Of a stretch of DNA of 24,687 nt, positions 4,024-24,687 are shown one piece after another. The translations under genes were made by a program, and so were the position numbers. This DNA comes from a virus (Duplodnaviria > Heunggongvirae > Uroviricota > Caudoviricetes), in IMG/VR virus record IMGVR_UViG_2711768042_000001, positions 1 through 24,687 of that record; one strand, given 5' to 3'. How positions within the stretch are numbered: the first letter of the stretch is position 1; the number at the start of each line of letters is the position of its first letter. Below the pieces are notes generated by a model. It was not told where the DNA came from. It saw nothing but the letters and a program-made list of their open reading frames with translations, and searched no databases.

Positions 4024-4100
4024 TGGCGTGGCATGCAGGATTCGAACCTGCGACCAACCGCTTAGAAGGCGGTTGCTCTGTCCAACTGAGCTAATGCCAC
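4024..4100 (-). tRNA. tRNA-Arg (anticodon UCU, decodes AGA), phage-encoded
   Basis: Reverse complement folds as a canonical cloverleaf: acceptor GTGGCAT/ATGCCAC, D-arm GCTC-AGTTGGACA-GAGC, anticodon arm ACCGC-CTTCTAA-GCGGT (anticodon TCT), T-arm GCAGG-TTCGAATC-CTGC, discriminator G and encoded CCA. Differs from E. coli argU as I recall it (from memory, not a comparison). Confidence 0.9.
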
Positions 4101-16422: not shown

Positions 16423-19400
16423 TGCCGTTCTATCCTGTATCTGAATCAAACAATAACGGATTTATTTCTGCTGGTCTCGCCATTCCTGAACCTGATGAAC
16501 AGAGTTTTGATGTGCATCCGCCAGAAGGTAAGAACCCTGAACCTCGTCCCAAAGAGCCTTCATTGCTTGCCGCAGCAATACGACAGAACAATATTCTGGC
16601 TGGTTTTTTCCGTCCTGCCAGACAGTTTGAACCGGTCGAGGGTTATAACCCATATGCTGATAAAAATGAGTTGCACGGTTATGAATACTGGGGGGCGAAA
16701 TTTGCAGATTCCCGATCGCCAGAGGAAACGGCGTGGATTAAGCAGCAGATAGATGATGAAAATGAAGATCGGCGTTTTATCTCTGAAGCAGGCTTAGCTG
16801 GTGGAATTGCCAGTGCAACAGCGATGCTTTTTGACCCGGTTACTGTTGCGTCAATGTTTATCCCAGGTGCTCAAGGAGGGGCACTGGCGCGTATTGGCTC
16901 ACAGATTGCGATTGGTGCTGCCGGTACTGCATTAAGCGAGGTTGTACTGAATAATCAGCAAATAACACGCTCATGGGGTGAAAGTGCCGCTCACGTTGCA
17001 GCGGGTGCGATGATGAGCGGCGTGTTTGCCAGTGCTGGTGTTGCGCTTTCGCCATCCGTCCGGGCTGCAGCCACACGTGAGGTTGCTGATGCTCTTGATA
17101 ATATGAGCATTACATCAGCGACTGACAGGGCTGCCGCTTCGCTTTCCGATGGTGGTAGTGTTGGTGCTATGAAAATTGATACAGCGACTCTGGATGATTT
17201 AACCCCTGTTTCCGGTGGGTGGGTTGGAAAGGCTGCATGGAAAGCAGGGAGCTATCTTACTCCTTTGACAAGGTTAATGGAGTCTCCGTCCAAGACGGTG
17301 CGAAAAACAACGCTGGAGTTAGCCGAAAATAATTTCACCCTTAAAGGAAATGAAAGGGGGATTGAAACACCGGTAGCTGTAGAAACCCGTACACGTGGAT
17401 GGCAGCGTGAAGAAGCTGCTGTTGTTGTCGGAAATAAACAGGCATACGCAAAGTATAAAGCTGATGGTGGTGACATGAGTTTTGATTCATTTCGTCAGCA
17501 GGTTGGGAATGCTATGCGAAGCGGTGATGTGCATGCTAATCCTGTTGTTCAGGAAACGGCGCAGGCGATGCGAACTGTATTAAATCGGGTGAAAGTTGAA
17601 ATGCAAAAGCTTGGTTTATTGCCGCCAGATGAAGAACTGAAAGCATTAGGCCAGGCAAGCTATTTCCCACGCATATATAAAGTTGGAAAAATAATCAGTG
17701 AACGCGATAAATTTCGACGTATTTTGGTTGACTGGTGGTCGAGAGGAAATAAAACACTGGATCCTGAGGATGCTGAAATTGCAGCGGATATCGTAATTAA
17801 TAAAATTACTGGTGCTAAGGTTCCACAGGATTTTGTCAGCGTATTTTCTGTAAAAGCCGCAGGTAGTACGAAAGAAAGAACATTAAATGTTCCTGATAGT
17901 CTTATCAGGGATTATCTTGAAAGTGATGTGAATTACGTGCTGCAACGTCATATCCGTGAAGCGGCAGCAGAGATTGAGTTGACGAGAACATTTGGCAAAC
18001 GAACTATGACTGAGCGTCTGCAATTAATTGAGGACGAATATGACAGTCTGTTACGGGAAGTGCCTGAAAAAATAAAGGCGAAATATGACGAAAGTGTGGC
18101 AAATCTGAAAGCACGTTATGAGAGCAATGGTGAAGTTGTTCCTCAGGGTAAACTCGATTCATTAATGCGAAAGTACGAAAAGGAATTACGGAAAGAACAG
18201 TCCAGACTTTCAAAATCAAGAGCAAATGATCTCAGAGACATAACAGCATTACGCGATCGTCTTGTTGGTACATATGGTATGCCTGATGATCCGTCTTCGT
18301 TTTTTGTTCGTGCTGGCGCTTTTCTGCGGGATGTGAACTTCACGACCAAACTCGGTGGAATGACAGTATCAGCTATTCCAGATCTGGCCAGAGGGGTTAT
18401 GGTTAATGGTTTCCGTAACACCATGAAAGGCTATGCTTCTCAGATATCCCAATCACCGGCATTTAAGGCCAGCAAAGAAGAGATGTTGAAGATGGGGATT
18501 GGATTGGAAACTGTACTACATTCACGTTCTCGTGCAATTGGTGATCTTGTTGACAGTTCTTCCAGGACAACAGCAGTCGAAGCAGGAATGGAGCGAATTA
18601 CTGATGCCTTCGGCAAGCTGACACTCATGGATCGATTTAATGACATAAACAAATCCATGAACGGAATGCTCACGTCAGACGGTATTTTGTCTGGTGCGTT
18701 TTCTGCACGTCGCATGGCAAAACTCGGTATCAACGACAATATGGCGGCGCGTATTCGCAGTGAGTTCGAGAAACATGGTGAGGTAATTGATGGATGGCAC
18801 ATTGGTAACTTTGATAAATGGGACGATCAGTACGTTGCCGGAGTATTCCAGTCAGCGGTTCTGAAAGACGTTAATAACACTATCATCACCCCCGGTATTG
18901 GTGACACACCTTTATGGGCGAGTACTCCAATGGGGCGAACGATATTTCAGTTTAAATCATTCACAACGGCTTCATACAACCGTGCGCTACTTGGTGGGTT
19001 ACAGGAAGGAACTGCGCAATTTTATTATGGCACTGCATTTCAGATTGCTCTTGGCTCACTGGTCTATGCGCTAAAAGAAGCATCGAAAGGGAAAAATGTT
19101 GACTGGTCACCAGAGAAGCTGGTGCTTGAGGGTATAGATAGATCCGGTATTCTTGGGCCATTGATGGAATATAACAACATGGCTGAAAAGGCTACTGGTG
19201 GTGCTGTTGGGCTGGGGGCTTTATTTGGCACTGGCACACAGTCTAGGTATGCCAGTCGTGGATTCGTAGGATCTCTATTCGGACCGTCATTTGGTCTTGC
19301 GGATAGCATCATTGATGTGACCGCAGGAGTGTTGAATGGTGATGCCGGTGATCGTATTGTGCATAATGTCCGAACCCTGATACCAGGCAATAACCTGTTC

Positions 19401-19445
19401 TGGATTGCGCCACTAATAAACCAAGTGGATCCGGTGATGCGTTAA
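16422..19445 (+). CDS. large internal virion/DNA-injection protein (gp16 position)
   Basis: 1007 aa, ATG overlaps upstream stop (TAATG); last gene of the + strand structural block before the accessory locus. Confidence 0.6.
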   Translation: MPFYPVSESNNNGFISAGLAIPEPDEQSFDVHPPEGKNPEPRPKEPSLLAAAIRQNNILAGFFRPARQFEPVEGYNPYADKNELHGYEYWGAKFADSRSPEETAWIKQQIDDENEDRRFISEAGLAGGIASATAMLFDPVTVASMFIPGAQGGALARIGSQIAIGAAGTALSEVVLNNQQITRSWGESAAHVAAGAMMSGVFASAGVALSPSVRAAATREVADALDNMSITSATDRAAASLSDGGSVGAMKIDTATLDDLTPVSGGWVGKAAWKAGSYLTPLTRLMESPSKTVRKTTLELAENNFTLKGNERGIETPVAVETRTRGWQREEAAVVVGNKQAYAKYKADGGDMSFDSFRQQVGNAMRSGDVHANPVVQETAQAMRTVLNRVKVEMQKLGLLPPDEELKALGQASYFPRIYKVGKIISERDKFRRILVDWWSRGNKTLDPEDAEIAADIVINKITGAKVPQDFVSVFSVKAAGSTKERTLNVPDSLIRDYLESDVNYVLQRHIREAAAEIELTRTFGKRTMTERLQLIEDEYDSLLREVPEKIKAKYDESVANLKARYESNGEVVPQGKLDSLMRKYEKELRKEQSRLSKSRANDLRDITALRDRLVGTYGMPDDPSSFFVRAGAFLRDVNFTTKLGGMTVSAIPDLARGVMVNGFRNTMKGYASQISQSPAFKASKEEMLKMGIGLETVLHSRSRAIGDLVDSSSRTTAVEAGMERITDAFGKLTLMDRFNDINKSMNGMLTSDGILSGAFSARRMAKLGINDNMAARIRSEFEKHGEVIDGWHIGNFDKWDDQYVAGVFQSAVLKDVNNTIITPGIGDTPLWASTPMGRTIFQFKSFTTASYNRALLGGLQEGTAQFYYGTAFQIALGSLVYALKEASKGKNVDWSPEKLVLEGIDRSGILGPLMEYNNMAEKATGGAVGLGALFGTGTQSRYASRGFVGSLFGPSFGLADSIIDVTAGVLNGDAGDRIVHNVRTLIPGNNLFWIAPLINQVDPVMR

Positions 19446-19466
19446 TCAATATTTATTGGAGTTCTT

Positions 19467-19994
19467 TCAATGGCTGTTTATGGCTTCTAAAGAAGCTTCT
19501 GCACTTATCGGCAAAGCAATAGTATCCTTGTTAGATGTGCTATTGCTTTCCAGAACTATGGAAATCCAATCCTCTTGGTTTTCATTAATTGTGCTGACAG
19601 CCATGATAGCATTCAAATCATTTTTATATATTTCTGATCGAATAAGACCTTTCCTGAATAATTTAGTTAAGTTTTCAGCTATCGACATCGCACGAATGCT
19701 AACTTTACTAAGCTCAATTGCGTCACTACCTGCGACTTTGGCGTGTTGAGAAAGAGCCATCAAAGCTATATGTGAAAATGTTTCTTCTTTTGAAAAACCG
19801 TTACTTAAAGACATGAGTGATACACCAGCTCCGTATGGAGTGAGTTTATATCCTGATACATTCAGTGCATGCTCTACAAAGGTAAGATCATCAGTTGTAG
19901 AAACATGCATATCGTTACTTTTTTGTTTTTTTGCAATAAATAAAAAAACAAAATTAATAATCACGATGCCGACGATGATTAAGAAAACTTCCAT
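19467..19994 (-). CDS. membrane-anchored accessory protein (single N-terminal TM); superinfection-exclusion candidate by position
   Basis: ATG 19994 with GAGG 7 nt upstream; N-terminus EVFLIIVGIVIINFVFLFIA is one TM helix; AT-rich; sits directly after the injection gene on the opposite strand, where P22 carries sieA. Confidence 0.6.
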   Translation of the reverse strand: MEVFLIIVGIVIINFVFLFIAKKQKSNDMHVSTTDDLTFVEHALNVSGYKLTPYGAGVSLMSLSNGFSKEETFSHIALMALSQHAKVAGSDAIELSKVSIRAMSIAENLTKLFRKGLIRSEIYKNDLNAIMAVSTINENQEDWISIVLESNSTSNKDTIALPISAEASLEAINSH

Positions 19995-20014
19995 TGCTTT
20001 TCCTCACAATAACA

Positions 20015-20029
20015 TTACCTTAAAGGTAA
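20015..20029. promoter_or_regulatory. palindromic motif TTACC-TTAAA-GGTAA, site 2 of 6
   Basis: Exact string 20-35 nt upstream of the 19994 start on the minus strand. Confidence 0.4.
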
Positions 20030-20054
20030 TATTTTGTGCTAATGTGATCAAGTG

Positions 20055-20453
20055 TTAAGTGTATACCTCCTGTTGCTCAGTGGTGATTTTACCCGGCAAC
20101 ACCTTTTTAGCTTTGTGCGGGTTAACCACATGGCCTTTAGTCCAGTACTCGTAGAGCACATCGTCACACTCTTCCTGATACTGGATTACCTTGTCGCGGA
20201 TTTCAGGGCGGACTTTGTTAGGGCTGATGCTGTTCAACCAAGCTGCCAATTTTCGTAAAGCCATACAAATCATGGCTTGCACCCCACCGGCAGAAGGTAT
20301 GGTGATTTCCACCATACCCTTCGAGAAGCGTTGAGAAATCTTCTTATGTTGAGATTTCCAGTCTAGCCCCATTCCCTCAACGATAGGTTTCATTGGGGTA
20401 TACGGTTCGCCGTTGTGATTGACAACATAAAGCTCTGCGCCGTGGAATGGCAC
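20055..20453 (-). CDS. antirepressor N-terminal-domain-like protein (P22_AR_N-like), possibly truncated
   Basis: N-terminus FHGAELYVVNHNGEPYTPMKPIVEGMGLDWKSQ...VIQYQEECDDVLYEYWTKG has the style of P22-antirepressor N-domains (from memory). Starts with GTG, no clear SD, only 132 aa, so may be a remnant. Confidence 0.45.
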   Translation of the reverse strand: MPFHGAELYVVNHNGEPYTPMKPIVEGMGLDWKSQHKKISQRFSKGMVEITIPSAGGVQAMICMALRKLAAWLNSISPNKVRPEIRDKVIQYQEECDDVLYEYWTKGHVVNPHKAKKVLPGKITTEQQEVYT

Positions 20454-20590
20454 GTTGATAGTAGTGACAAATTTGAAACATCGCTGGTTGTAAGCCAGCA
20501 GATGCTCGTTATTTTACGTCGCGGCACAATTTCTCGCTGCTGGCTCTTTTACACACATTAACCAAATATGGTTGATTTTAATATTTATAC

Positions 20591-20886
20591 GCGCTTATCA
20601 TTACCTTTGCGGTAAATTTACATTGCATTCCTCTTGTGCCATAGTAATCGGGCACTGGCAAAATCCAGTGTCGGGATTGGTCTCCCGGATTACTAAGTGG
20701 CGCATACCACGCCAGACGTGGTTTTTTTATGCGTATAGCACAGTCATGCCAGAATTATGGTGGGCTGAATGGGGGTCCGAAAGGACGCCGGTACCACTTA
20801 GGCCGGTAAGACCAACTCCGTTCAGTTCACCACCATCTGATTGGTCTCAGCGGTGGTGATGTAATTCGCTAAGTGGAGACGCCATC
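20591..20886 (+). promoter_or_regulatory. structured ~295-nt leader upstream of the AntA-like gene (copy 1 of an inverted pair)
   Basis: About 85-90 percent identical to the reverse complement of 23122-23412; contains TTACC-TTTGC-GGTAA (20601-20615), two stem-loops, an intrinsic terminator, then complementary sites AGACCAA (20809-20815) and TTGGTCT (20841-20847) before the RBS GGAG. Confidence 0.7.
20651..20727 (+). ncRNA. candidate C4-like antisense sRNA, copy 1 (SL1 CACUGG-CAAAAU-CCAGUG; SL2 CGGGA-UUGGUC-UCCCG; terminator CCACG-CCAGA-CGUGG then U7)
   Basis: Three consecutive hairpins ending in a U-run, about 77 nt; SL2 loop UUGGUCU is complementary to AGACCAA in the downstream leader. 5' end not determined. 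Confidence 0.45.
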
Positions 20887-21543
20887 ATGAACGCTCAACT
20901 CATCCCCGTATTCAACGGCACTATATCTAACGAAACAGCCCTACTTTGTAATGCCCGCGATCTGCACGCTTTTTTAGGTGTTAAAAAGGTGTTTGCAGCA
21001 TGGATTACAAATCGCATTTCAGAATACGAATTCATTGAAAATCAAGACTATATTTTGCTTTCCAATTTGGGAAAGCAAACATCTGGTAGAGGCGGCCACA
21101 ACCGCAAAGAGTACCACCTCACCCTTGATACAGCCAAAGAGCTGGCGATGGTCGAGCGTAACGAAAAAGGTCGCCAGATACGACGCTACTTCATTGAATG
21201 CGAGAAACGTTTAAGACAACAAGAAACAAAGGTGGAGAAGGTCTTGTCAGGCTTCATGCCAGCCATTATGGAGGCGATCAAGCTGGAAGACAAAAAAGAA
21301 TACAGCGCCCAACTGAAGCCCGGCTACCGCAGCCTGATTCATTCGCCGTCTGGTGTTCTCGGCCTGACGGAGAACTCACTGCTGATGAATTTGCTGAACC
21401 AGTTACAGGAAGACGGGCATGATGTATCGGGCGCGGCAGCGGAGCTGACCACCATGTTCTGCTACATCGTCGGTGTGAGCAAATGCCTGCGTGATATCCA
21501 GACGCACGCGGAGTACATCAACGACAAGGCAGGGTTCTTCTGA
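20887..21543 (+). CDS. antirepressor, AntA-type N-domain plus shared C-terminal domain
   Basis: ATG with GGAG 8 nt upstream; N-domain ...[16 protein letters not shown]...[30 protein letters not shown] matches the AntA pattern; the C-terminal 80 aa are near-identical to the C-terminus of the 22435..23121 gene. Confidence 0.75.
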
Positions 21544-21568
21544 CGAGCGGCGGCACAGGGATGTGCAA
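21301..21568. repeat. inverted repeat arm A (antirepressor C-domain coding plus 25 bp of 3' flank)
   Basis: About 94 percent identical to the reverse complement of 22410-22677. Confidence 0.8.
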
Positions 21569-21580
21569 AACGGAACTATC

Positions 21581-21592
21581 GTGACATGTCAC
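21581..21592. repeat. 12-bp perfect palindrome GTGACATGTCAC, copy 3 of 3
   Basis: Exact string between the antA stop and its terminator. Confidence 0.9.
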
Positions 21593-21593
21593 A

Positions 21594-21617
21594 GGCCGCT
21601 TTCGCGGCCTTGTTTTT
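21594..21617 (+). terminator. rho-independent terminator (GGCCGC-UUUC-GCGGCC then TTGTTTTT)
   Basis: 6-bp GC stem with tetraloop and T-run directly after the AntA-like gene. Confidence 0.7.
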
Positions 21618-21654
21618 AACGAATGCCACCGCCACCCGGGCGGGAATCCGCAGA

Positions 21655-21678
21655 CACAAAAAAGCCCGCGTCGCGGGC
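21655..21678 (-). terminator. rho-independent terminator for the minus-strand membrane-protein gene (GCCCGCG-AC-GCGGGC then U6 on minus strand)
   Basis: Plus strand AAAAAAGCCCGCGTCGCGGGC at 21658-21678, abutting the stop of the 21679..22218 gene. Confidence 0.65.
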
Positions 21679-22218
21679 TTACCAAAACTTGTACCACGGG
21701 GATTTATCCTTCAATGGACAATCCTTCCATCGTGTGGCCAACCATTCATATTCTTTAAAATATGTGTTTATGTTTTCTTTTTCTCTAATAGCTTGTATAA
21801 GAGGTAGCGCAATCTGATAGTTATTTACAACGGAGCTGTAAAATACTTCCTTAATCATGGTCTCATCATAAGTTTTCCGCTTCACGCTCACAGCCATGCG
21901 TTCGTAGAAACCTAGACAGTAAATTATTTCTCTCTTCTCTATCTTTTCTTCATCCGTAAGATCAGCCTGCCCATTGCTTGGATACATATAAGAGCGGAAT
22001 GATTTGTTCGATTCGTGAATGCGGCGCATAGTAGATAGGCCTTTCTTATAATCTACATCAAACCTGCTTTCACCAAGGAATACTGAAGTGTGTACTTTTC
22101 TCGCTGTATTTACATTATAAATAATAGTAGCGATAGCTATGAACAAGCCAAGCGAAACCGCGACTGCACTTACGATTTGAGCCACAGCCATGGCAAATTG
22201 CATTTCTTCACTTAACAC
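21679..22218 (-). CDS. membrane-anchored accessory protein (N-terminal TM helix), unknown function; exclusion/abortive-infection candidate
   Basis: GTG 22218 with GGAGA 6 nt upstream (alternative ATG at 22203); TM segment FAMAVAQIVSAVAVSLGLFIAIATIIY; own terminator; AT-rich; lies between the two convergent antirepressor cassettes. Confidence 0.6.
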   Translation of the reverse strand: MLSEEMQFAMAVAQIVSAVAVSLGLFIAIATIIYNVNTARKVHTSVFLGESRFDVDYKKGLSTMRRIHESNKSFRSYMYPSNGQADLTDEEKIEKREIIYCLGFYERMAVSVKRKTYDETMIKEVFYSSVVNNYQIALPLIQAIREKENINTYFKEYEWLATRWKDCPLKDKSPWYKFW

Positions 22219-22347
22219 AAACTGTCTCCAGACATGAAAACGGGGCCTAATGGCCCCGTCATTAAACTATCCGAATGTTAAACGCCTTCGTACTCGTCAA
22301 ATTTTCTCATGTGGGCTCCTCCTGTATCGGTGCCTAATCGCTATGGA

Positions 22348-22362
22348 TCACCCGTAAGGTAA
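22348..22362. promoter_or_regulatory. imperfect palindromic motif TCACC-CGTAA-GGTAA, site 4 of 6
   Basis: One half-site mismatch relative to TTACC-N5-GGTAA; intergenic, about 140 nt upstream of the 22218 start. Confidence 0.3.
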
Positions 22363-22409
22363 TAGTACTCTATTCACCCCCCTGTCTGCAATCGTACAGA
22401 ATTATTTAA

Positions 22410-22677
22410 AGGCACATCCCTGTGCCGCCGCCCGTCAGAAGACCCCTGCCTTGTCGTTGATGTATTCCGCGTGGGTCTGGATATCACGCAGGCATTTACT
22501 CACACCGACGATGTAGCAGAACATGGTGGTCAGTTCCGCCGCCGCGCCCGATACGTCGTGCCCGTCTTCCTGTAACTGGTTCAGCAGATTCATCAGCAGT
22601 GAGTTCTCCGTCAGGCCGAGAACACCAGACGGCGAATGAATCAGGCTGCGGTAGCCGAGCTTCAGTGGGGCGCTGTA
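22410..22677. repeat. inverted repeat arm B (antirepressor C-domain coding plus 3' flank)
   Basis: Reverse complement about 94 percent identical to 21301-21568. Confidence 0.8.
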
Positions 22678-23121
22678 GGTTTTGTTCTCTACCTTCATTG
22701 CCTGCATCACTGCTGATGCTGTGGCGCTGGCTACCTGGTCGGCAACCATCTTTATGCGTTCTTCCTGCGGGAGCGAGTTTTTAATGTAACTTCCGGTGCG
22801 GCGGATCTGAGGAAGAACCTCACCTGTAACCCATTTACGAAAGCGGTAGGGGGTAGTGCCTGGTGTCACCGCATCGCGGCAGCGGAGGATCAGTGTGTAG
22901 AGGCCTGACTCGTTGATAATATTGGTTTCGCCTTGACGGCCTAAGTTAAATTTAGCCCTTTCATCATCATCAAGAGATTTTATTGACATAGTGGGGTTTG
23001 TCAGTTGAAGAGCTTTAATAACGTCTTTGGCAACAAACCAAGGATTTCCATCAATAACAATGGCTCGAATGGTTGCTTCTGATTCAAAATGAAAAACAGA
23101 TGGGGTTACGTTAGCAGTCAT
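22435..23121 (-). CDS. antirepressor, Bro-N-type N-domain plus shared C-terminal domain
   Basis: ATG 23121 with AGGTGAT upstream (track ORF extends to 23274 but that N-terminal extension overlaps the conserved leader). Bro-N pattern: IDGNPWFVAKDVIKAL...NESGLYTLILRCR...YRFRKWVTGEVLPQIRRTGSY. Confidence 0.75.
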   Translation of the reverse strand: MTANVTPSVFHFESEATIRAIVIDGNPWFVAKDVIKALQLTNPTMSIKSLDDDERAKFNLGRQGETNIINESGLYTLILRCRDAVTPGTTPYRFRKWVTGEVLPQIRRTGSYIKNSLPQEERIKMVADQVASATASAVMQAMKVENKTYSAPLKLGYRSLIHSPSGVLGLTENSLLMNLLNQLQEDGHDVSGAAAELTTMFCYIVGVSKCLRDIQTHAEYINDKAGVF

Positions 23122-23274
23122 AGCGATCACCTTTGTAGTTAGGTTAATCACCACTACCGACGCCAATCGGTTGGTGGTGAACTGTGCAGGGTTGGCGTAA
23201 CCGGCTACAAAGGACCCGGCGCACCTTTCGGTGCCCCCACACAGCCCACCATAGAATAGGTGCGCTTTACACAT

Positions 23275-23352
23275 AAAAAAACCGCTTATGCGGCATATGT
23301 GCCTCTGTAGTAACTCGGGACGCCAATCCCGGCACTGGATTTTGCCAGTGCC
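23275..23352 (-). ncRNA. candidate C4-like antisense sRNA, copy 2 (SL2 loop UUGGCG; terminator CCGC-AUAA-GCGG then U7)
   Basis: Same three-hairpin architecture as copy 1; loop UUGGCGU is complementary to ACGCCAA (plus 23192-23198, read on minus) in its own leader. Confidence 0.45.
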
Positions 23353-23387
23353 CGATTACTATGGCACAAGAGGAGTGCGATGTAAAT

Positions 23388-23402
23388 TTACCGCAAAGGT
23401 AA
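23388..23402. promoter_or_regulatory. palindromic motif TTACC-GCAAA-GGTAA, site 5 of 6
   Basis: Exact string at the upstream end of leader copy 2, mirroring 20601-20615 in copy 1. Confidence 0.4.
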
Positions 23403-23433
23403 ATATAAGCACTCCATTTGGTAATTGCAAACC

Positions 23434-23691
23434 TTATCTGGTTTGTTTTCGTAATTGTTCGGCACAATAGTCGAGATGTGTTTGCAGATCCTGCATAGAC
23501 ATCTGTGAGCTGGTGACGTAGTTAATCAGTGCAGTCAGTTCGGCAAGTGGGCCATCGACATTAAATCCATCCTTATCGAGATCCCGGAGTAATTTCATCA
23601 AGTGCGATCCCTCCACCAGTGACCTGACGCCTCCCGGCGTGTGAATCCTTTCGGTAAATCCGTCTTCCAGTGGATAGTGATACTGCTGCAT
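23434..23691 (-). CDS. small protein (about 85 aa) homologous to the antirepressor C-terminal domain only
   Basis: ATG 23691 with GGAG 6 nt upstream (track start 23814 is probably too long because it would cover the LexA box and operator motifs). YHYPLEDGFTERIHTPGGVRSLVEGSHLMKLLRDLDKDGFNVDGPLAELT aligns with [50 protein letters not shown]. Confidence 0.55.
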   Translation of the reverse strand: MQQYHYPLEDGFTERIHTPGGVRSLVEGSHLMKLLRDLDKDGFNVDGPLAELTALINYVTSSQMSMQDLQTHLDYCAEQLRKQTR

Positions 23692-23710
23692 CTTATCTTC
23701 TCCATGCAAT

Positions 23711-23730
23711 AACTGTATATTTATACAGTA
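23711..23730. promoter_or_regulatory. LexA (SOS) box: AACTGTATATTTATACAGTA
   Basis: CTGT-N8-ACAG with an AT-rich spacer, 18 of 20 matches to the E. coli consensus TACTGTATATATATACAGTA; 20-40 nt upstream of the 23691 start on the minus strand. Confidence 0.6.
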
Positions 23731-23767
23731 GCAAATAATTTGTTTGCTATCCAGCACGTTTTGCAAA

Positions 23768-23782
23768 TTACCTGAAAGGTAA
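23768..23782. promoter_or_regulatory. palindromic motif TTACC-TGAAA-GGTAA, site 6 of 6
   Basis: Exact string, identical core to site 1 (4423-4437). Confidence 0.4.
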
Positions 23783-23886
23783 TATCTATTCGTATTTACA
23801 GTCTTTCTATCCATATGTGGTTTTCCAGGTAATAGAATAACCAGATATGCGGCGCAACGGGTGCTGCGACTATCTGGAGATTTAAC

Positions 23887-24687
23887 ATGACGGTCTCAAC
23901 CGAAGTTGACCACAACGAATACACCGGTAACGGCGTTACGACATCGTTTCCGTATACTTTTCGAATTTTCAGAAAATCAGACCTGGTTGTTCAGGTGTCT
24001 GACCTGAACGGAAACGTAACAGAATTGGTTCTGGATACCGGTTATACGGTAACTGGGGCGGGCACTTATAGTGGCGGTTCTGTGGTTCTTCCGTCTCCGC
24101 TTGCTACTGGATGGCGAATTACGATAGATCGTGTGCTTGATGTAGTGCAGGAGACAGACCTTCGCAATCAGGGAAAATTTTTCCCCGAAGTGCATGAAGA
24201 TGCCTTTGACTACCTGACGATGCTGATCCAGCAATGTTTTGGGTGGTTCAGACGTGCATTGATGAAACCATCTTTGCTTGCAAAATATTACGATGCAAAG
24301 CAAAACAAAATTTCTAACCTTGCAGATCCATCATTTGAGCAGGACGCTGTAAATAATCGCTCAATGCGTAATTATGTCGATGCTGCAATCGCCGGGGTTG
24401 TTGGTGGTTTTGGTTGGTTTATTCAGTATGGTTCTGGGGCTGTGTACCGAACGTTCCAGGATAAAATGCGTGATGCTATTAGCCCCAAAGATTTTGGAGC
24501 TGTTGGTGATGGTATAAATGACGATTCCACTGCAATAAGCGCGTGCCTTGAAGCCTCATCTCCAGGTTATAAAATTGACGGATTAGGGCTTACTTTTAAA
24601 GTATCAACTCTTCCGGATGTCAGTCGATTTAAAAATGCTCGTTTTTTATTTGAGAGAATACCGGGCCAGCCTCTTTTTTATGCTTCT
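23887..24687 (+). CDS. tailspike/tail fiber protein, N-terminal part (3' end outside the window)
   Basis: ATG 23887 with GGAGA upstream; open to the window end (267 codons); N-terminus TVSTEVDHNEYTGNGVTTSFPYTF is typical of tailspike adaptor domains, and DFGAVGDGINDDSTAI is the pectate-lyase-type beta-helix entry motif. Missing from the supplied ORF track because it has no stop in the window. Confidence 0.75.
   Translation, partial: MTVSTEVDHNEYTGNGVTTSFPYTFRIFRKSDLVVQVSDLNGNVTELVLDTGYTVTGAGTYSGGSVVLPSPLATGWRITIDRVLDVVQETDLRNQGKFFPEVHEDAFDYLTMLIQQCFGWFRRALMKPSLLAKYYDAKQNKISNLADPSFEQDAVNNRSMRNYVDAAIAGVVGGFGWFIQYGSGAVYRTFQDKMRDAISPKDFGAVGDGINDDSTAISACLEASSPGYKIDGLGLTFKVSTLPDVSRFKNARFLFERIPGQPLFYAS

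Follow-up and report, generated by a model that had tools for sequence, protein, structure and literature searches.

A small antirepressor orthologous to SPC32H Ant, very probably the LexA-gated induction switch of an epsilon15/phiV10-type prophage of Escherichia coli

The closest described relative of the protein considered here is Ant of the Salmonella phage SPC32H, a LexA-controlled antirepressor whose complex with the repressor Rep has been solved (PDB 5D50; PMC9638917, PMC9986798, PMC7380047). In that system self-cleavage of LexA precedes the synthesis of Ant, which inhibits the repressor through protein-protein contact (PMC7380047). Rep binds DNA as a tetramer, and its C-terminal domain has two roles, in tetramerisation and in binding Ant (PMC9986798), which also acts as a tetramer (PMC9638917). 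Dissociation of the Rep tetramer from DNA by a bound Ant tetramer is known for SPC32H only (PMC9638917, PMC9986798). Prophages of the phiV10 species in E. coli are induced by the microcin Mcc1229, which the title of the preprint classes among the DNA-damaging bacteriocins (bioRxiv 10.64898/2026.05.26.727859).

Two other groups of antirepressors invite comparison. Tum of phage 186 and the Tum-like antirepressors of Fels-2 and Gifsy follow the same logic as SPC32H Ant, in that a small LexA-repressed protein inactivates a non-cleavable repressor by contact; the RefSeq record of 186 annotates Tum itself as a DinI-type protein that binds RecA filaments. The immI-type antirepressors (c4-icd-ant of P1 and P7, Ant of P22 and proteins with Bro-N, AntA or KilA-N domains) include the P1 and P7 systems, in which C4 antisense RNA genes precede the antirepressor. 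SPC32H Ant (SPC32H_020; chains E-H of PDB 5D50) is reportedly the subject of two primary papers (Kim & Ryu 2013, J Virol 87:11775; Kim et al. 2016, PNAS 113:E2480), and its role as a DNA-damage switch of the prophage is said to have been established by genetics and a crystal structure. The mechanism discussed below is based on secondary descriptions of the SPC32H system and on the PDB entry.

The DNA analysed here, referred to as the window, is a stretch of 24,687 nucleotides (IMG/VR record IMGVR_UViG_2711768042_000001). It is part of an epsilon15/phiV10-type podovirus prophage of E. coli, genus Uetakevirus, and its genes code, in order, for the terminase, the portal, the capsid, the injection proteins and a tailspike whose N-terminus is of the epsilon15 type. 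A tRNA-Arg gene (anticodon TCT; 4024..4100, minus strand) separates the terminase genes from the portal gene, an arrangement shared with SPC32H. The tailspike gene (23888..24687, plus strand) encodes an epsilon15/phiV10-type N-terminal domain. Its closest matches in E. coli genomes carry the annotation of endosialidase catalytic beta-propeller proteins, which makes a polysialic-acid (K1-type) capsule a possible target of the phage. A mosaic accessory region of about 4 kb (19400..23430) separates ant from the last injection-protein gene; its equivalent in SPC32H is about 200 nt long. None of the complete E. coli genomes covers at least 80% of the arrangement at 19400-24687.

The ant gene runs from an ATG at 23691..23689 to a TAA at 23436..23434, and translation returns exactly the position and the 85-aa product of the original prediction. 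The mechanical list of open reading frames also holds a 126-aa frame (23434..23814), which is a spurious extension of ant: in Tyrion, BUCT554, phiV10 and the Klebsiella relatives the frame ahead of ant either is closed or contains no ATG, and the SPC32H protein of known structure has 86 aa. Compared with ant of SPC32H, as E. coli and Salmonella orthologues, the gene has a dN/dS of 0.06 (dS 1.4, dN 0.085), and the frame is thus under strong purifying selection. The features of the region are collected in Table 1.

Table 1. Position and basis of the features in and around the ant region of the window
Feature	Position	Strand	Basis
ant, small antirepressor, orthologue of SPC32H Ant	23434..23691	-	translation, homology, structure match, dN/dS
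Shine-Dalgarno GGAG, 8 nt 5' of the ant ATG	23700..23703	-	sequence; invariant in 7 phages
LexA (SOS) box, core CTGT-N8-ACAG at 23713..23728	23711..23730	.	18/20 to consensus
Candidate ant promoter: -35 TGGATA (23753..23748), 17-nt spacer, -10 TACTGT (23730..23725)	23725..23753	-	inferred from sequence
Inverted repeat TTACCTGAAAGGTAA between ant and the tailspike gene, candidate Rep operator	23768..23782	.	motif enrichment
TTACCGCAAAGGTAA, candidate operator at the promoter of the isrK/C4/Bro-N cassette	23388..23402	.	motif
TTACCTTTGCGGTAA, candidate operator at the promoter of the isrK/C4/AntA cassette	20601..20615	.	motif; inside 103-nt inverted repeat I2
TTACC-N5-GGTAA sites	1215, 1233 (1 mismatch), 4423, 20015, 20601, 22348 (1 mismatch), 23388, 23768		
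isrK (23351..23275) and C4 (23256..23170), between ant and the Bro-N gene	23170..23351	-	Rfam 74.2 and 79.5 bits
isrK (20652..20728) and C4 (20753..20837), 5' of the AntA gene	20652..20837	+	Rfam 65.5 and 61.2 bits
Ant-like C-terminal domain of the Bro-N antirepressor (gene 22435..23121)	22438..22689	-	BLASTP; PDB match
Ant-like C-terminal domain of the AntA antirepressor (gene 20887..21543)	21289..21540	+	BLASTP
Truncated third antirepressor, 132 aa, P22_AR_N domain only	20055..20453	-	Pfam

On the features that can be compared from sequence, the 85-aa gene is a full-length, syntenic orthologue of SPC32H ant and a member of the SPC32H-type family. SPC32H ant (KC911856, where it is annotated as ant) is 88% identical to the window protein over residues 2-84 (tblastn). 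Phages ZX5 and Phi05_1387 B have a protein that is 100% identical over all 85 residues, labelled in both as a hypothetical protein, and in TL-2011b the identity is 100% over residues 1-84. A phmmer search of the PDB aligns residues 2-84 with residues 3-85 of the 86-aa chain E of 5D50, which is named 'Anti-repressor protein' (E = 4e-47), and phrog_450 matches at E = 9e-48. Pfam and NCBIfam return no domain for the 85-aa protein, only sub-threshold noise (DUF724, UpsF). The gene is located 3' of the injection-protein genes and is divergent from the tailspike gene in both the window and SPC32H, and this synteny is shared by ZX5, E. coli MS8345 and six distant homologues. The homology to the SPC32H protein is full-length, the protein is a single domain of about 86 aa, a LexA box is present upstream, and the gene is found in a Uetakevirus genome, divergent from the tailspike.

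A near-consensus LexA box ends 21 nt before the ATG of ant with no ORF between the two, and ant had been described beforehand as the first gene after this box. The core of the box reads CTGTATATTTATACAG, and the 20-mer that contains it agrees with the LexA consensus TACTGTATATATATACAGTA at 18 of 20 positions. The pattern CTGT-N8-ACAG has three occurrences in the window, against 0.3 expected. The upstream regions of the window and SPC32H genes align, including the LexA box, which is about 20 nt before the start, and the Shine-Dalgarno sequence. Together with a CTGGA.A block, read here as the candidate -35, these two elements are conserved in seven aligned Uetakeviruses from four host genera. 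In particular, SPC32H, Tyrion, BUCT554 and phiV10 keep the box, and the Klebsiella phages have a change in one of its half-sites. A LexA-like box is also found 17-29 nt 5' of the start in four of the six distant standalone Ant lineages. The candidate -10 hexamer of the ant promoter falls inside the LexA box, and the CTGGA.A block is invariant in all seven aligned phages. A consensus promoter scan did not report this promoter, the hexamers being below the scan threshold, and the -35 and -10 hexamers, which are weak, are candidates assigned from their conservation.

The partner of Ant is encoded elsewhere in phages of this type. A search of the window did not find rep, whose place in phages of this type is upstream of the terminase genes and beyond the window. 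Homologues of Rep are found in essentially the same phage records as Ant (about 35 of 50,697), and two phages in which the identity to the window Ant is 100%, ZX5 and TL-2011b, both have one. The ZX5 Rep matches 5D50_A (E = 4e-42) and 5D4Z in the PDB. The rep genes of related phages that were compared are at 33739..34335 in L002 and 13182..13766 in L003. Rep of the E. coli phages is 42% identical to Rep of SPC32H, the N-domain (HTH) being 54% identical and the C-terminal half, which binds Ant, 37%; Ant of the window is assumed to bind it. In the Klebsiella phages the identity is 63% for Ant and 64% for Rep. With 88% for Ant against 42% for Rep in the one comparison and 63% against 64% in the other, the divergence of the two proteins is uncoupled, so Ant may read a small conserved surface of Rep or have a broad specificity.

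Taken with the SPC32H work, these features make it very probable that ant is a LexA-gated, SOS-triggered switch for the induction of this epsilon15/phiV10-type prophage. In the lysogen, host LexA would occupy the box that overlaps the ant promoter and keep ant silent. On DNA damage, RecA would become active, LexA would cleave itself and ant would be transcribed. The 85-aa protein would then form a tetramer and bind the C-terminal tetramerisation domain of Rep, and the DNA-binding Rep tetramer would be split into dimers that leave the operators, turning on the lytic genes. For the window protein, the binding of LexA, the tetramerisation of Ant and the disassembly of Rep are all predicted from SPC32H. 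The phage differs from SPC32H in its host, in the sequence of the partner Rep and in having two fused paralogues of Ant (Bro-N-Ant and AntA-Ant), which SPC32H does not have. The likeness to the SPC32H protein extends to the size (85 and 86 residues), the genus Uetakevirus and the presence of a Rep-type repressor in genomes that carry an Ant identical to that of the window.

Similarity in logic to Tum does not reflect a relationship in sequence. Ant and 186 Tum gave E = 0.06 in a single BLASTP comparison and a profile-profile (hhalign) probability of 0.08%, and Ant was rejected as a Tum/DinI-like homologue. The relationship to the immI-type antirepressors is of a different kind, since the Ant fold is the C-domain of two proteins of the window whose genes are preceded, as in P1 and P7, by C4 antisense RNA genes. 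Ant itself has neither an N-terminal domain nor C4 or Mnt/Arc control, and would be controlled by LexA instead. It was therefore rejected as a full-length immI-type antirepressor, for want of both the N-terminal domain and an upstream C4.

Both long antirepressors of the window end in a domain related to Ant. The small protein aligns without gaps with the Bro-N protein (31/78 identical, 40%, E = 2e-15) and with the AntA protein (30/74 identical, 41%, E = 7e-15) in BLASTP, and the aligned part is the last 80 residues or so of each. The identity of about one-third that had been estimated by eye thus becomes stronger on formal alignment. The lack of N-terminal domains in the small protein had been read correctly as well: Pfam finds the Bro-N, AntA and P22_AR_N domains in three neighbouring genes and none of them in the 85-aa protein, the Bro-N domain being at residues 18-104 and the AntA domain at residues 22-92 of the respective long proteins. 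Since the C-domain of the Bro-N protein also matches residues 3-79 of 5D50_E (E = 2e-13), the shared domain is the Ant fold. The window has exactly three significant copies of it in tblastn, all other matches having E > 1. The ends of the two convergent antirepressor genes that code for the C-domains form a 282-nt inverted repeat, 94% identical (21285..21566 and 22412..22693). Its arms bracket a segment of 845 nt with a 179-aa ORF (21679..22218, minus strand), and related E. coli genomes encode a protein with a DUF4760 domain in the corresponding region. Recombination between the arms could invert this segment.

A word-indexed protein search gave only close standalone relatives, and it was an exhaustive profile search of 1.84 billion representatives that revealed the fused forms, with only 59 Ant relatives in all. 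These consist of several standalone lineages of 82-96 aa and of fusions to AntA, Bro-N, Phage_pRha and ORF6N N-domains; synteny is preserved in six distant standalone members. In the phage collection the fused Ant C-domain occurs only in Uetakevirus records that have Rep, while the Bro-N part is widespread (N15, phiKO2, Aaphi23, mycobacteriophages and others). This distribution agrees with the attachment of a repressor-specific C-module to a generic N-module; the alternative is shared ancestry of the records.

The control of the long genes is of another type. Each is preceded by an isrK and C4 cassette, both above the Rfam gathering scores, and Rfam finds no such cassette upstream of ant in the window, only the two long genes having one. 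Each C4 has two pairing partners within its own leader, of which one covers the Shine-Dalgarno sequence, and compensatory changes distinguish the two cassettes. In the Bro-N cassette the pairing over the Shine-Dalgarno sequence is CCTTTGTAG with CTACAAAGG and the second is ACGCCAA with TTGGCGT; in the AntA cassette the corresponding pairs are CCACTTAG with CTAAGTGG and AGACCAA with TTGGTCT. These compensatory differences suggest that the cassettes, which look like switches of the P1/P7-immI type, are orthogonal to each other. As paralogues with the Ant fold, the C-domains of the long antirepressors most likely also engage Rep, and they would be gated by C4 antisense RNAs, not by LexA.

A palindrome, TTACC-N5-GGTAA, is much more frequent in the window than expected and is found in promoter regions. 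The window has eight matches within one mismatch, six of them exact, against 0.4 expected. The copy between ant and the tailspike gene is conserved in seven aligned phages, with one base changed in phiV10. The copy at the promoter of the Bro-N cassette overlaps promoter-like hexamers at 23431..23402 and is just upstream of those at 23386..23358. In SPC32H and ZX5, clusters of the same palindrome are found in the intergenic region between rep and cro, so that it is probably the operator of Rep. If it is, Rep would directly control the late promoters, the ant/tailspike promoters and those of the C4 cassettes.

The presence of three copies of one fold in the window could also be taken to mean that the small protein is a decoy or modulator and not itself an inactivator of the repressor. 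It would then act by titration of the full-length antirepressors' partner, or by joining their C-domains in mixed oligomers, so that their activity is tuned or blocked; since Ant works as a tetramer, mixed tetramers are conceivable (PMC9638917). The original prediction had offered such a decoy as one of its two options. However, the small ant is a conserved core gene, found in every Uetakevirus record examined, and the fused copies are variable accessory cassettes that number from zero to two per genome. SPC32H, epsilon15 and SPN1S carry the small ant without any fused copy (one place per record), and in SPC32H it is the small Ant that is the inducer. A gene that is always present, even where there is no fused copy, cannot exist mainly to modulate the full-length proteins, and a decoy role, left unsupported by this distribution, is very improbable. 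It is harder still to believe that ant is the C-terminal remainder, with no function of its own, of a full-length antirepressor that has decayed. One truncated antirepressor is indeed close by, with the P22_AR_N domain only and flagged by RefSeq as incomplete, but ant has the low dN/dS given above, its standalone length is constant (82-89 aa) and it has its own start, Shine-Dalgarno sequence and LexA box across distant lineages, and its orthologue has been solved as an independent 86-aa protein. At the DNA level the truncated gene shares 97% identity with a part of ant from phage CUS-3, and its counterpart in E. coli MS8345 is the one flagged in RefSeq, with the C-terminus missing.

The much greater conservation of Ant than of Rep in the SPC32H comparison, set beside the nearly equal values in the Klebsiella phages, means that one type of Ant coexists with very different Reps. 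Ant might on this account act mainly on Rep-type repressors from other Uetakevirus-like prophages that are resident, whether in addition to its own Rep or in place of it; the Gifsy prophages and Fels-2 provide known examples of antirepressors that work in trans (PMC7380047). However, nothing here points to a second Rep-type prophage, and the simplest reading of the conservation is that the cognate Rep is targeted through a conserved surface; cross-talk as the main function is very improbable. The preferred reading of ant remains that of an SOS-triggered switch acting on its own Rep. It agrees with the other option of the original prediction, a minimal antirepressor, which gains support from the 88%-identical syntenic orthologue under LexA control and from the solved Rep-Ant complex.

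In this respect the ant gene of the window is an ordinary feature, its function being already known from the SPC32H orthologue. The experiments that had been proposed, as if for a kind of protein that had not yet been studied, are in essence published for that orthologue. The role of minimal antirepressor is established in the literature. There is an annotation gap, in that Ant is called hypothetical in most of the phage and bacterial records seen, PHROGs gives its function as unknown and neither Pfam nor NCBIfam has a model for it, and this gap persists despite the solved structure and published function of the orthologue.

The paralogy of Ant with the C-domains of the Bro-N and AntA proteins leads to a modular reading of the long antirepressors that can be tested. 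It is tentatively suggested, as a possibility to which we give clearly less than even odds, that the Ant fold is a repressor-specific 'warhead' which Uetakeviruses would have attached to generic Bro-N and AntA chassis with orthogonal C4 switches, and that Ant may also act across heteroimmune Uetakeviruses, as its 88% conservation alongside Reps that are 42% identical would allow. If the fold is such a 'warhead', the prophage would have three independently gated routes, one through the SOS response and two gated by antisense RNA, to disassemble the same Rep tetramer, possibly by way of mixed tetramers.
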